Source: Alphaproteobacteria bacterium (GTDB taxonomy: Bacteria > Pseudomonadota > Alphaproteobacteria > Rs-D84 > JAERRO01). Taken from it: 64,000 nucleotides of DNA. The position numbers and the translations under genes were made by a program. The stretch is from assembly GCA_016735395.1 (NCBI GenBank), contig JAERRO010000010.1, positions 138-64,137 of the forward strand, read 5' to 3'. Shown here one piece after another: positions 35,425 through 38,373 of the stretch. The notes under the pieces are model-generated. The model was not told where the DNA came from, made no database searches, and saw nothing but the letters and a program-made list of their open reading frames with translations. Each line of letters opens with the position of its first letter. Position 1 is the first letter of the stretch.

Positions 35425-36357
35425 GTGAAAAAACTTGTAATCGACACCACCGATAATATTCTCCGAATCGCTCTAATAGGTAAAGATGTTCGAGAAGGAA
35501 AATGTCTGGAATTTATTTTACAACCTAGAGAACTAGAAAGTAGACTCGTCCCAGAAATTAAAAAAATAGTTTGCGGAGACTTTAAAAAAATAAGCTCCAT
35601 AATAATTTGTGTAGGCCCCGGATCTTTCACGGGAAGTAGACTAGGAATTAGTTTTGCTAAAGCTATGAGTTTTTTTCAAATCGAGATAAGAGAATTTTCG
35701 TGGCTCTATATGTGCAAAATTGCTAAAATAGAAGACGAATTTAATACGGGTTTTTTTATTAAAAATGATGGCGATATATATTTTAAAGATAAAAATAATC
35801 TCACCGTCGCAGAACAAAAAATCTATACTATAAATAAAGAGTGGTCTCTAGAAACAGTTCATAAAATTGTAGAAAATAGTAAAATTGCAAAATTAGATCT
35901 AGAACCTTTGTACGGTAGAATTTGTGGATCTATCCCGTCTATTATTTCCGAAGTTAAAACAGTACAAGAATCAGACCTCTTCTTCGCATTTCTAAAATCC
36001 TTCGATCGTAACTGTGAAAGATATATTGGCAAAGAAGATATATATCTCATCAACTCTATAAAAGAAAAAGTTATCACTAATGTAGTCGTTTACAAAGTAG
36101 AAAAGGATCAGTTAAAAATTTATGAATTTATTACAAATAAATTATATAGAGGAAAAGGGGAGGGTACTAGGATGTTAAAGAAGATGACAAGTATCGCACA
36201 TAATATGACGGAAATAAAATCTGTTTTGATAACTGTCGAAAAAGATAACAAGCCTGCTATATCTCTCCTTCTAAAAAATAAGTTCGAGCAAAATAATAGC
36301 GGAAAACACCCTAATTTAGAGTTTGTATTAAAATTATCTACGGTTCCTATCGTTTAA
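35425..36357 (+). CDS. tsaB: Fusion of tRNA t6A-biosynthesis protein TsaB (YeaZ-like) with a RimI-like GNAT N-acetyltransferase
   Basis: N-terminal 'LVIDTTDNILRIALI...CVGPGSFTGSRLGISFAKAM' is the TsaB core. The C-terminus 'YRGKGEGTRMLKKM...' is a GNAT acetyl-CoA motif A (R/Q-x-x-G-x-G/A). Both sit in one 310-aa ORF. Confidence 0.65.
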   Translation: MKKLVIDTTDNILRIALIGKDVREGKCLEFILQPRELESRLVPEIKKIVCGDFKKISSIIICVGPGSFTGSRLGISFAKAMSFFQIEIREFSWLYMCKIAKIEDEFNTGFFIKNDGDIYFKDKNNLTVAEQKIYTINKEWSLETVHKIVENSKIAKLDLEPLYGRICGSIPSIISEVKTVQESDLFFAFLKSFDRNCERYIGKEDIYLINSIKEKVITNVVVYKVEKDQLKIYEFITNKLYRGKGEGTRMLKKMTSIAHNMTEIKSVLITVEKDNKPAISLLLKNKFEQNNSGKHPNLEFVLKLSTVPIV

Positions 36358-38373
36358 CTTGGCGACTTTATAATTGACGAATATAGAAAATAATAATATC
36401 ATTATCATCCACTGAGAGAGAGAAAATTTACCGGCAAAATTTCCGCCTCGTGGTTCGGGAATATAGCTGTCTAAAACTCCTCTTTCATTTAGTCTAATAT
36501 AATCAGATTTATAACCGATAGGATTTTGAAACGATTTTACGACTCCAGGGACTCTCCGTCCAAGACCATCTATAATAGAAGAAATTCCGGAATAACTAGA
36601 TCTAATTACTGGCACCCCAAATTGTATCGCATACATTCGTGCGATGGCATCGTGTTGATAAGGTCCTGTTTTTATACCGAACCAACTGTCGTTCGTTAAT
36701 GTCAAAATAAAATCGAATTTTTTATTCCTCGGTATTAAATCTGAAAAAATCATTTCGTAACAGATAAGAGGTAAAAACGAGATGCCACTTCTTTTTATCA
36801 ATATCGTTTGAATAGAGGGAATAGCTCCAGAACTAAATTCTGACGGAAGAGGAAGTACGGTTTTCCAGGGTATTACACTACTTAAAGGAGCATATTCTCC
36901 GAATGGAACTAAATGATGTTTAACGGAAATTTGATGCAAACTTTCCCGCGATAAATTTCTATCAGATATAAAAAGCCCGTTATAAAGTTTCTCAGAATTT
37001 TTTAGACTGCCGACGGCTCCAAATAAAATCGGTGTCGGTTCGTCTATAATAGTTTTCGTCTTAATGTCGAAGATGGGTATAGTATAAGGAAATGAACTTT
37101 CGCTCCATATTAGTATATCTATTCCAGTACCGTCCTTCGTCGGTAGACGAGATAATTTTTTTTGAAGACCCAAATTTTTGTCGGCATTTTTATAATCCCA
37201 TTTTTCATAATTTGATAATGAAGGTTGAACTATTCTAACAGATATATCCGTCAACTTTTGTTCTGACGATAATCTATAATTTCCAAAACCCCAACTGAAA
37301 GAAAGTATCAATAAAGATAATAAAATAATTTTAACTCTCCGCCTATAAATTCCTATGAATAAAAGACCTAACCATAATAATAATAGAAAAGTTAATCCTA
37401 GACTCGAGAAGACAGAAACTAGTTGAATATGCCGTAATTCTATTAAAGATACAGATAACGGGTTCCACGGAAATCCTGTAAAAATCCAACTCCTTAACCA
37501 TTCTAAAGATGTAAATATAACGGCGAATAATAATAGCCTTTGTGCTAAAGATCTCCCTCTAGAAAATGAGAGAGAACTTAAACCTAGAATCGATCCGAAT
37601 AATAATCCTATCAATATTAGAACCGGTAAGACTAGATAATAATATGGTGGCTGTCCCGGTACTTGAACTAGAAAAGATTCCGTTAGCCAAGAAAACTGAC
37701 TAGAATAAAATCCGGCACCTAAACATAACCCTGTTAAAAAAAATTTCCTTTTTGGAGTTCTATATAAACTATATAAATTATTATTCCTTATCTTTTCTAA
37801 TAAAAACCATAATAGAAAAAATATCGGTAATAATAATATAGGATAAGAATACGGTGAATATATGAAGACTCCGAATAGTCCTGTACAGAATAGTGAGGTA
37901 TATAAAATTATATTTTTCGCACCATTAAAATATGTGTATTTTTTTTCATAATGATCGTTATCTATTTTTAGATTTCGTAAAATTTTATTTTCTATGTGTC
38001 TCATCGTTATATTATCTATGACTTTATCATGACTATATCCTAAAAGATGTAAAAGACCGTGAGTGAAGAGCAACGATAAATGGTCCTCTAGGTTTATGTT
38101 TAATGCAATCGCCTCCGACTTTACCGTTTCATACGATATGAAAATATCTCCCAATAAAAATGGATCTTTTGTCTCAATAGACAACACATTAGTAGTTTTG
38201 TCTTTTCCTAAATATTTGTAATTTAATTCTCTAATTTTTTTAGAGTCGACGAGATGAATCGAAAAATCGGTTTCTCTCAATTTTAATTTTTTAAAAATTA
38301 TCTCGGTAATGTTTTTAAAAAAATGTTCGTCAAATTTGTCCTTCCAGATGTCATCCCTTATAAGGTCTATCAT
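36334..38373 (-). CDS. lnt: Single ORF fusing endoribonuclease YbeY (N-terminal ~125 aa) to apolipoprotein N-acyltransferase Lnt (C-terminal ~550 aa)
   Basis: YbeY zinc motif 'HGLLHLLGYSHD' sits at the N-terminus. From about residue 150 there are multiple TM helices and a C-terminal nitrilase/CN-hydrolase-like domain, as in Lnt. There is no in-frame stop between the two parts. The neighbourhood miaB-ybeY-(corC)-lnt mirrors the E. coli ybeZYX-lnt operon. Confidence 0.7.
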   Translation of the reverse strand: MIDLIRDDIWKDKFDEHFFKNITEIIFKKLKLRETDFSIHLVDSKKIRELNYKYLGKDKTTNVLSIETKDPFLLGDIFISYETVKSEAIALNINLEDHLSLLFTHGLLHLLGYSHDKVIDNITMRHIENKILRNLKIDNDHYEKKYTYFNGAKNIILYTSLFCTGLFGVFIYSPYSYPILLLPIFFLLWFLLEKIRNNNLYSLYRTPKRKFFLTGLCLGAGFYSSQFSWLTESFLVQVPGQPPYYYLVLPVLILIGLLFGSILGLSSLSFSRGRSLAQRLLLFAVIFTSLEWLRSWIFTGFPWNPLSVSLIELRHIQLVSVFSSLGLTFLLLLWLGLLFIGIYRRRVKIILLSLLILSFSWGFGNYRLSSEQKLTDISVRIVQPSLSNYEKWDYKNADKNLGLQKKLSRLPTKDGTGIDILIWSESSFPYTIPIFDIKTKTIIDEPTPILFGAVGSLKNSEKLYNGLFISDRNLSRESLHQISVKHHLVPFGEYAPLSSVIPWKTVLPLPSEFSSGAIPSIQTILIKRSGISFLPLICYEMIFSDLIPRNKKFDFILTLTNDSWFGIKTGPYQHDAIARMYAIQFGVPVIRSSYSGISSIIDGLGRRVPGVVKSFQNPIGYKSDYIRLNERGVLDSYIPEPRGGNFAGKFSLSQWMIMILLFSIFVNYKVAKLNDRNRR

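Follow-up and report, generated by a model that had tools for sequence, protein, structure and literature searches.

A single open reading frame in the window (the whole 64,000-nucleotide stretch of DNA analysed here) covers both the endoribonuclease YbeY and the apolipoprotein N-acyltransferase Lnt, and the question raised by this locus is whether the two are really encoded as one protein or whether a frameshift or a lost stop codon has merely joined two ordinary genes. The ORF scan returned one ybeY::lnt frame at 36334-38373 on the minus strand, complete with 679 aa from ATG to stop, as the preliminary description had reported. Both parts scored well above the curated cut-offs in Pfam (YbeY, PF02130, aa 16-134, 98 bits against a cut-off of 25; LNT_N, aa 165-333, 72 against 27; CN_hydrolase, aa 458-609, 48 against 23) and in NCBIfam (YbeY, TIGR00043, 107 bits against 45; the lnt equivalog TIGR00546, 236 against 133). 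The statement that no in-frame stop separates the two parts also proved accurate, as none was present between aa 125 and 215. The same interval is devoid of in-frame ATG, GTG and TTG codons, which rules out an internal in-frame start for Lnt. The gene lies, as described, directly downstream of miaB (38370-39776, minus strand; UPF0004 and Radical_SAM), whose stop codon overlaps the ATG of the fused ORF in the sequence ATGA, and no phoH/ybeZ is found between them. At its 3' end the fused gene overlaps a convergent tsaB/rimI-like ORF by 24 nt. The identical 679-aa protein is encoded on three contigs (72, 39.7 and 8.5 kb) and occurs in NCBI under two accessions (MBL0690629.1 and MBL0717954.1) as well as in Logan. 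The GC content of the 64-kb window is 33%, and its structural RNA genes comprise three tRNAs and no rRNA.

YbeY is a zinc-dependent endoribonuclease and 30S maturation factor with a role in the maturation of the 16S rRNA 3' end. PF02130, TIGR00043 and Foldseek all assigned aa 1-142 of the window protein (37948-38373, minus strand) to this family, and the domain is predicted to be cytoplasmic. The zinc-binding motif H105-x3-H109-x5-H115 (HGLLHLLGYSH, 38029-38061, minus strand), contained in HGLLHLLGYSHD at aa 105-116, maps to H114/H118/H124 of E. coli YbeY, and the three histidines were invariant in 102 fused homologues. The preliminary description had placed this motif at the N-terminus; it does belong to the N-terminal YbeY domain, but it is situated in the C-terminal half of that domain. 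Foldseek matched the YbeY part to 7y7o, 1oz9 and 1xm5 with target TM-scores of 0.76-0.82 and E values of 1e-9 to 1e-8. As in E. coli YbeY (b0659; PDB 1XM5, 1OZ9, 7Y7O), the YbeY domain of the window protein is full-length, shows the YbeY fold, has the H-x3-H-x5-H zinc site and ends at the natural C-terminal NPY-like motif. It differs in its covalent attachment to an integral membrane protein, in the absence of the partner gene phoH/ybeZ from the locus and in having a leucine in place of the R59-type arginine. To our knowledge, all characterised YbeY proteins are soluble.

The remainder of the protein corresponds to Lnt. The membrane domain with TM1-TM7 occupies aa 155-369 (37267-37911, minus strand), supported by the LNT_N match, Foldseek and the helices of the AF2 model (150-170, 178-197, 208-232, 245-270, 276-297, 318-340 and 345-369). 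It is followed by the nitrilase-like (CN-hydrolase) domain, aa 370-648 (36430-37266, minus strand), predicted to be periplasmic, and by TM8 with a basic cytoplasmic tail, aa 649-679 plus the stop codon (36334-36429, minus strand; AF2 helix 652-678). The catalytic residues E425 (37099-37101), K485 (36919-36921) and C538 (36760-36762), likewise on the minus strand, are equivalent to E. coli E267/K335/C387, and the counterparts of E. coli W237, E343, Y388 and E389 are W392, E493, Y539 and E540. The catalytic triad together with E493, Y539 and E540 is listed as invariant in the 102 fused homologues. The AF2 model of the fused protein (pLDDT 81, pTM 0.75) shows two folded modules connected by a disordered linker, and its Lnt part was matched by Foldseek to the E. 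coli and P. aeruginosa enzymes (8aq4, 5n6h) with target TM-scores of 0.74-0.79. Hydropathy and the distribution of K and R residues obey the positive-inside rule for a predicted N-in topology. The predicted arrangement is therefore one of eight TM helices with the catalytic domain, located between TM7 and TM8, in the periplasm and both termini in the cytoplasm, and a model of this kind fits the joining of a cytoplasmic YbeY to the cytoplasmic N-terminus of Lnt. In comparison with Lnt of E. coli (b0657; PDB 5N6H, 5VRG, 5XHQ, 8B0K), the 8-TM layout, the periplasmic nitrilase-like domain and the E-K-C triad are the same; however, the window Lnt is only about 23-28% identical, has no in-frame start codon of its own and is preceded at its cytoplasmic N-terminus by a complete YbeY domain of 142 aa.

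The preliminary description had named a frameshift or a lost stop as the alternative to a gene fusion. As an explanation by artefact this cannot be maintained, because at least 120 divergent protein clusters, sharing only about 30-35% identity, have the same architecture, with invariant catalytic residues in both halves (the 120 best matches shared 28-35% identity, measured 606-703 aa and all combined YbeY, LNT_N and CN_hydrolase). When the junction was compared among relatives, a single stop-free ORF extended across both domains in seven reference-genome loci, whereas at two other loci (L002 and L008) ybeY and lnt are separate genes, with the ybeY stop 3 or 9 nt upstream of an in-frame lnt ATG. 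In a simple neighbour-joining tree of the Lnt domains the fused forms, including the window protein, made up one clade (bootstrap 86/100), which consists of uncultured, largely gut or rumen Alphaproteobacteria, Ca. Enterousia being one example. The window protein was its deepest and longest branch and sister to all other fused proteins. Among the best 150 matches in a search of 50%-identity representatives there were about eight full-length fused proteins and two fragments, the rest being Lnt-only, and no independent fusion outside the clade was present among these 150. The seams themselves differ: one relative (L005) has an in-frame relic, ATG AAA AAA, where an internal in-frame Lnt start is possible, and the crown group has a Cys-rich linker with the motif C-x5-6-CCPG. 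These differences hint at more than one fusion event, as opposed to a single inherited state. Our literature search retrieved no paper describing a YbeY-Lnt fusion (the one paper that mentions both names deals with MicL and has no bearing on it), which apparently makes it undescribed so far; it is a tidy domain fusion and no new kind of system.

The gene neighbourhood points to how the two genes could have come together. The E. coli order miaB-ybeZ-ybeY-ybeX-lnt had been quoted correctly, and in most Alphaproteobacteria the equivalent arrangement is miaB-phoH-ybeY-corC-lnt. After the fused and the adjacent but unfused loci had been set aside, 56 of the 68 remaining sampled loci contained phoH, ybeY, corC and lnt together. 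The arrangement phoH-ybeY-lnt, without corC, occurred at five loci. In contrast, corC was absent from all seven fused loci, in agreement with the earlier suggestion that ybeX/corC had been lost and the flanking genes fused. These seven loci also lack phoH, a loss that the preliminary description did not mention. Within the 64-kb window, tblastn with alphaproteobacterial and E. coli queries gave no match to PhoH or CorC. Thus, miaB, ybeY and lnt are ordered and oriented in the window as in the canonical miaB-ybeZ(phoH)-ybeY-ybeX(corC)-lnt cluster, but phoH and corC are missing from the whole 64 kb and a single ORF has taken the place of separate ybeY and lnt genes. Some lineages that lack corC retain ybeY and lnt as separate genes.

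The region 37,930-38,010, suspected earlier of hiding a missed stop or an indel, does contain the seam. The two modules are connected by a linker, aa 143-154 (EKKYTYFNGAKN, 37912-37947, minus strand), which is disordered (AF2 pLDDT <50 at 143-149) and poorly conserved, with 23% identity in the fused family and 8% between the window protein and the others; the distance from the NPY to the FAPF motif varies from 21 to 56 aa across the family, and the sequence varies just as freely. At 37939-37949 (minus strand) the sequence has a vestigial lnt ATG and a run of eight adenines (A8), offset by one base from the frame of the fused ORF. With A9 instead of A8, the frame would resolve into overlapping ybeY (149 aa, ending in ...EKKIHIF and a stop) and lnt (538 aa, MKKKYTYFNGAKN...) genes. 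Since the probability of an ATG followed by at least seven adenines is only about 3.4e-4 per 60 nt, its occurrence at the domain boundary implies that a real lnt start once existed at the seam. In this respect the frameshift alternative was right about the origin of the seam, the out-of-frame ATG and A8 lying exactly at the junction.

These features could also mean that the true sequence is A9 and that a homopolymer error in sequencing or assembly has hidden an ordinary pair of overlapping genes. A single added A gives two complete and sensible genes, with a plausible lnt start, MKKKYTYF..., still recognisable, and since the window protein is sister to all other fused proteins, parsimony does not demand a fused state for it. 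Nevertheless, we consider such an error improbable. A8 was present in all three assemblies, whose contigs differ by 7-8 SNPs and align without gaps across 6-8 kb of AT-rich sequence; the fused protein is in both NCBI accessions and in Logan, whereas the split products expected from A9 or A7 were absent among 15 billion proteins in a public collection; and the same-seam fusions of relatives are unquestionably real. A search of JGI metagenome contigs for the junction with any length of the A-run gave 0 matches. The agreement of SNP-distinct assemblies on A8, together with the absence of split products, indicates that YbeY and Lnt are probably one encoded protein and that the fusion is genuine. 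As a secondary reading, the ATG+A8 seam may be a programmed slippage switch, a true A8 at which RNA polymerase or the ribosome slips to give free YbeY (A9 or A7 transcripts) and free Lnt (A9 transcripts, with initiation at the ATG) in addition to the fusion, so that the cell would not rely solely on the fused form. Long poly(A) tracts are known sites of transcriptional slippage in AT-rich endosymbionts, the out-of-frame ATG beside the run is intact, and A/T runs in the window are capped at 9 nt (13 of at least 8 nt, only one of at least 9 nt), compatible with selection against slippery tracts elsewhere. However, A8 is short for efficient slippage, two further 8-nt runs lie inside the fused gene, where slipping would be harmful, and no Shine-Dalgarno-like sequence precedes the seam ATG; we regard such a switch as somewhat less probable still than a sequencing error. 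The A-runs at the junction show no positional conservation in relatives, and slippage as a conserved feature was rejected on these grounds.

Two further explanations accept a single frame and question what becomes of YbeY. The domain might be a decaying, non-functional N-terminal remnant or no more than a cytoplasmic extension of Lnt, in which case another gene would provide YbeY function or this reduced genome could do without it. The window protein is indeed the most divergent member of the family, its YbeY domain being 41% identical to those of other fused members, compared with 61% among those, and Leu55 occupies the position of E. coli R59, an arginine of the proposed RNA-binding groove that is kept in at least 90% of the fused homologues. 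We do not treat this substitution alone as disqualifying. All 27 of the family-invariant YbeY positions, the three histidine ligands included, are kept in the window protein, the domain scores are far above the family cut-offs, the predicted fold is that of YbeY and no second ybeY is found within the 64-kb window; decay thus appears very unlikely. Moreover, in the fused family as a whole YbeY is the best-conserved part (mean pairwise identity 61%; Lnt parts, 50-56%), and this points to selection on YbeY. We attach an equally low probability to the idea that one chain is translated and then cleaved in the linker to release soluble YbeY, so that the fusion would enforce nothing but co-expression. 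A disordered and poorly conserved linker would be accessible to proteases, but there is no conserved cleavage motif, the variable NPY-FAPF spacing speaks against one, and the conserved Cys-rich element gained by the crown-group linker suggests a structural part that is retained.

We therefore favour, with considerable though not complete confidence, the reading that the ORF encodes a genuine bifunctional protein in which a complete YbeY is linked to a complete 8-TM Lnt and which originated by operon contraction. An ancestral miaB-phoH-ybeY-corC-lnt operon would have contracted by the loss of phoH and corC from the locus, leaving ybeY and lnt abutting or overlapping, and their frames would then have been joined. 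In the window genome the joining step would have been a one-base frame change in the poly-A run beside the old lnt start codon. In the resulting protein, a cytoplasmic YbeY would be followed by a flexible linker (about 12 aa) that leads into the cytoplasmic N-terminal end of Lnt TM1, and the nitrilase-like domain of Lnt would face the periplasm; the two activities would then operate on opposite sides of the inner membrane without any need to interact. The net effect would be an obligatory 1:1 co-expression and a membrane-tethered YbeY. The analysis shows the ORF, its domains and catalytic residues, the predicted topology and fold, the conservation of the fusion and the series of operon arrangements; from there we infer that the cell makes one polypeptide of about 78 kDa, with both activities kept and with YbeY working while bound to the membrane. 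E. coli YbeY tolerates tags at both its N- and C-terminus (PMC5101352).

Natural fusions of YbeY to Era exist in some Clostridia, Selenomonadales and Thermoleophilum, and there, too, YbeY forms the N-terminal part and its partner is encoded by a gene that often lies next to ybeY (PMC10582724). Era, however, is a GTPase of ribosome assembly that resides in the cytosol and cooperates physically with YbeY, whereas Lnt, the partner in the window, is membrane-bound, belongs to an unrelated pathway and has its active site across the membrane. The bifunctional protein favoured here also has functional analogues in other systems. Membrane-anchored RNases include E. coli RNase E, with an amphipathic anchor, and B. 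subtilis RNase Y, with a TM helix; they show that RNA processing can take place at the inner membrane, and the mycobacterial Lnt-Ppm1 fusion is a precedent for Lnt joined to a cytoplasmic enzyme domain. These cases resemble the window protein in function only, as they involve other enzymes, another mode of anchoring and a different end of Lnt. It is also conceivable, though improbable in our view, that the ybeY-lnt linkage of proteobacterial operons reflects a real functional coupling at the inner membrane (a "Rosetta stone" case). YbeY would then act on ribosomes or mRNAs that produce envelope proteins and lipoproteins, the tether to Lnt would couple ribosome quality control to envelope biogenesis, and the Cys-rich linker of the crown group would sense metals or the redox state.

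Almost all bacteria possess YbeY, yet its exact molecular role and the reason for the association of its gene with corC and lnt are debated. A clade with a tethered YbeY would show that this enzyme can accomplish its essential task while anchored to the inner membrane, with neither phoH nor corC beside it at the locus, and this would limit the possible models for the place and manner of its encounter with the 30S subunit. The loci also form a graded series with visible seams, from five genes to four, to an abutting pair and to the fusion, which would illustrate operon contraction as a route to a multidomain protein. Finally, public records name the product only as "apolipoprotein N-acyltransferase", and due to this annotation gap such genomes may seem to lack ybeY.

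Both ybeY and lnt are encoded in the window by a single ORF of 679 aa (36334..38373, minus strand), the ATG of which overlaps the stop codon of miaB (ATGA). When its product was searched against Pfam, the YbeY (aa 16-134), LNT_N (aa 165-333) and CN_hydrolase (aa 458-609) domains all scored above the gathering threshold, and the NCBIfam models for lnt (TIGR00546, 236 bits against a cut-off of 133) and YbeY (TIGR00043, 107 bits against a cut-off of 45) were matched at equivalog level. A PDB sequence search retrieved E. coli and P. aeruginosa Lnt (E ~1e-36) as well as YbeY structures. 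Each half is a bona fide family member, and the ORF listing, Pfam, NCBIfam and PDB matches agree with the preliminary description, which had placed both enzymes in one continuous 679-aa ORF.

The AlphaFold2 model computed from an alignment of 102 fused homologues (pLDDT 81, pTM 0.75) comprised a folded YbeY module, a disordered linker (pLDDT <50 at residues 143-149) and an 8-helix membrane domain with a nitrilase-like domain between helices 7 and 8; Foldseek matched Lnt structures with target TM-scores of 0.74-0.79 and YbeY structures with 0.76-0.82. As read from the sequence, basic residues cluster in the linker, the TM2-3, TM4-5 and TM6-7 loops and the C-terminal tail, and the remaining loops are nearly uncharged. 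This confinement of basic residues to the linker, alternate loops and tail indicates that the protein, like E. coli Lnt, has an N-in topology; the cytoplasmic RNase would then connect to TM1 at its cytoplasmic end, making the fusion topologically sound. No in-frame start codon was found between aa 125 and 215 of the fused ORF; thus, Lnt would be made only as a fusion unless slippage occurs. The modelled protein is probably bifunctional, with the two enzymes acting independently, one on each face of the inner membrane, and YbeY tethered to the membrane by the fusion, an arrangement that can be likened to RNase E and RNase Y. E. coli YbeY tolerates fusions at its N- and C-terminus (PMC5101352), and natural YbeY-Era fusions exist (PMC10582724).

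Among 5.8 billion protein clusters searched, 287 matched the fused protein; the best 120 were all 606-703 aa long and carried YbeY, LNT_N and CN_hydrolase, while being only 28-35% identical to the window protein. Two alignments, of 29 and of 102 fused proteins, showed no variation at the YbeY zinc ligands H105/H109/H115 (E. coli H114/H118/H124) or at the Lnt triad E425/K485/C538 together with Y539/E540 (E. coli E267/K335/C387 and Y388/E389). The YbeY module was the best-conserved part of the family (mean pairwise identity 61%; Lnt parts 50-56%, linker 23%). Because the family is wide and divergent, its catalytic residues invariant and its YbeY module conserved, the architecture is old and under selection. 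The alternative raised initially, a one-off read-through, is contradicted by at least 120 divergent fused clusters with invariant catalytic residues. The window member itself carries two caveats: a long branch in the tree, and Leu55 (38209-38211, minus strand) in place of a conserved Arg (E. coli YbeY R59) that at least 90% of the fused homologues retain; the sequence around it, YLGKDKTTNVLS, is otherwise conserved.

The E. coli order miaB-ybeZ-ybeY-ybeX-lnt quoted in the preliminary description proved right. We scanned one genome per GTDB species, obtaining 80 loci that were classed by HMMs made from the two halves of the fused-protein alignment, with flanking genes checked by ORF listing, Pfam and BLAST. 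The 56 canonical loci each had phoH, ybeY, corC and lnt, and the order miaB-phoH-ybeY-corC-lnt was seen by ORF listing in three of these, L009 being Pfam-verified. Five loci (L002, L008, L014, L036, L039) had miaB-phoH-ybeY-lnt with ybeY and lnt as two separate ORFs and no corC. At seven (L001, L003-L007, L023), mostly from MAGs of gut or rumen origin, Candidatus Enterousia among them, the fusion was a single stop-free ORF, and neither phoH nor corC lay within ±6 kb of any of them. The context of L001 was identical to that of the window (gatA-gatB-miaB-ybeY::lnt, tsaB and rimI lying on the other strand), and no phoH, corC, second ybeY or second lnt was found anywhere in the 64-kb window. The suggested loss of ybeX/corC with gene fusion is therefore borne out, phoH being absent too. 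In L002 and L008, both of the unfused class, only 3 or 9 nt separate the ybeY stop codon from a same-frame lnt ATG, and loss of that one stop would yield a fusion. L002 (CAVBCV010000004.1) carries the label 'Lachnospiraceae bacterium', but its miaB-phoH-ybeY-lnt cluster is of alphaproteobacterial type and its Lnt falls with those of Alphaproteobacteria, so this MAG was probably mis-binned or mislabelled. The Lnt proteins of L039 (6357-8114) and L008 (6394-8109) have N-terminal cytoplasmic extensions of 60-90 aa, that of L039 being a Lys/Ala-rich, low-complexity, histone-H1-like tail (MAKSVKKETTGKTKKKAAVKKSASKK...).

In an NJ tree of Lnt domains, all 36 fused sequences grouped as a single clade with a bootstrap of 86/100, in which the window protein was both the deepest and the longest branch. 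The adjacent but unfused loci fell outside this clade, which implies more than one loss of corC. When 1.84 billion 50%-identity representatives were searched exhaustively, only about 8 full-length fused representatives were among the matches listed, and the window protein formed a cluster of its own. The clade is moderately deep, not huge.

At the seam, the sequence cattATGAAAAAAAAtac (37939-37949, minus strand) contains an ATG shifted by one base relative to the frame of the fused ORF, followed by a run of eight A's. One inserted A (A9) would give two ordinary overlapping genes: a ybeY of 149 aa ending ...DHYEKKIHIF* and an lnt of 538 aa starting with MKKKYTYFNGAKN directly ahead of TM1. Since the chance of an ATG with at least seven A's in a random 60-nt stretch of the fused gene is ~3.4e-4, this ATG almost certainly once served as the start codon of lnt, and the window fusion arose from, or differs from, a two-gene state by a 1-nt homopolymer change. 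The seam lies exactly within the stretch flagged for re-inspection (37,930-38,010). A systematic homopolymer error could make the fused ORF an artefact, A9 read as A8 hiding two normal genes. However, an NCBI contig (8 SNPs over 8.0 kb) and a Logan contig (7 SNPs over 6.1 kb), which also differ from each other, aligned to the window without a gap; all three have A8, and the fused protein occurs under two NCBI accessions plus Logan. The hypothetical A9 and A7 products were absent from ~15 billion proteins. We therefore consider such an error unlikely. A/T homopolymers in the window (1-64000) look length-capped: 88 runs reach at least 7 nt and 13 reach at least 8, but a single run reaches 9 and none 10. 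The 2-kb ybeY::lnt ORF contains three of the 13 runs that are 8 nt or longer.

Other fused proteins show other seams. In L005 (ORF 5815-7815), an in-frame ATG AAA AAA (MKKVGLF...) stands right ahead of TM1, and internal initiation of a separate Lnt could also occur in that lineage; in the crown group, the linker holds a Cys-rich insert. As the seams of basal members and crown group differ, there may have been more than one fusion event once ybeY and lnt were direct neighbours. The insert (VC-x5-6-CCPG-x-KTI...), followed by a basic amphipathic stretch, was present in 66-74 of the 102 aligned proteins, e.g., L007 (aa ~152-175 of ORF 4984-7038), L023 (ORF 5983-7983) and L004 (ORF 5983-8025), where it shows a metallothionein-like expansion (CNCGCGGKCNCVDCKCKNCSCCNCPG). 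It was absent from the window protein, L001, L005 and the termini of stand-alone YbeY or Lnt, and may serve in metal binding or acylation.

No paper describing the YbeY-Lnt combination was found in the literature searched, and public annotation names the fused proteins 'apolipoprotein N-acyltransferase' only. Precomputed Pfam matches in the search collection show all three domains, so the fusion is visible to anyone listing domain architectures. As an evolutionary case we regard it as real and tidy; it carries one implication of use to the YbeY field and is no new mechanism.

Next to the fused gene, and overlapping it by 24 nt 3' end to 3' end, a 310-aa ORF (35425-36357, plus strand) joins a TsaB-like N-terminal part (weak TsaD-family match at aa 52-83) and a GNAT/RimI-like acetyltransferase (aa 203-284) in one chain. 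In L001, the closest syntenic relative, tsaB and rimI are separate overlapping ORFs, and this looks like a second neighbour-gene fusion. The N-terminus encoded by a further ORF (31383-33224, plus strand, 613 aa) is hydrophobic and resembles a signal peptide; the product also contains many cysteines and a long stretch rich in Gln (QQQIAKQQQQQFQLQQQQVQAQSQQQQ).
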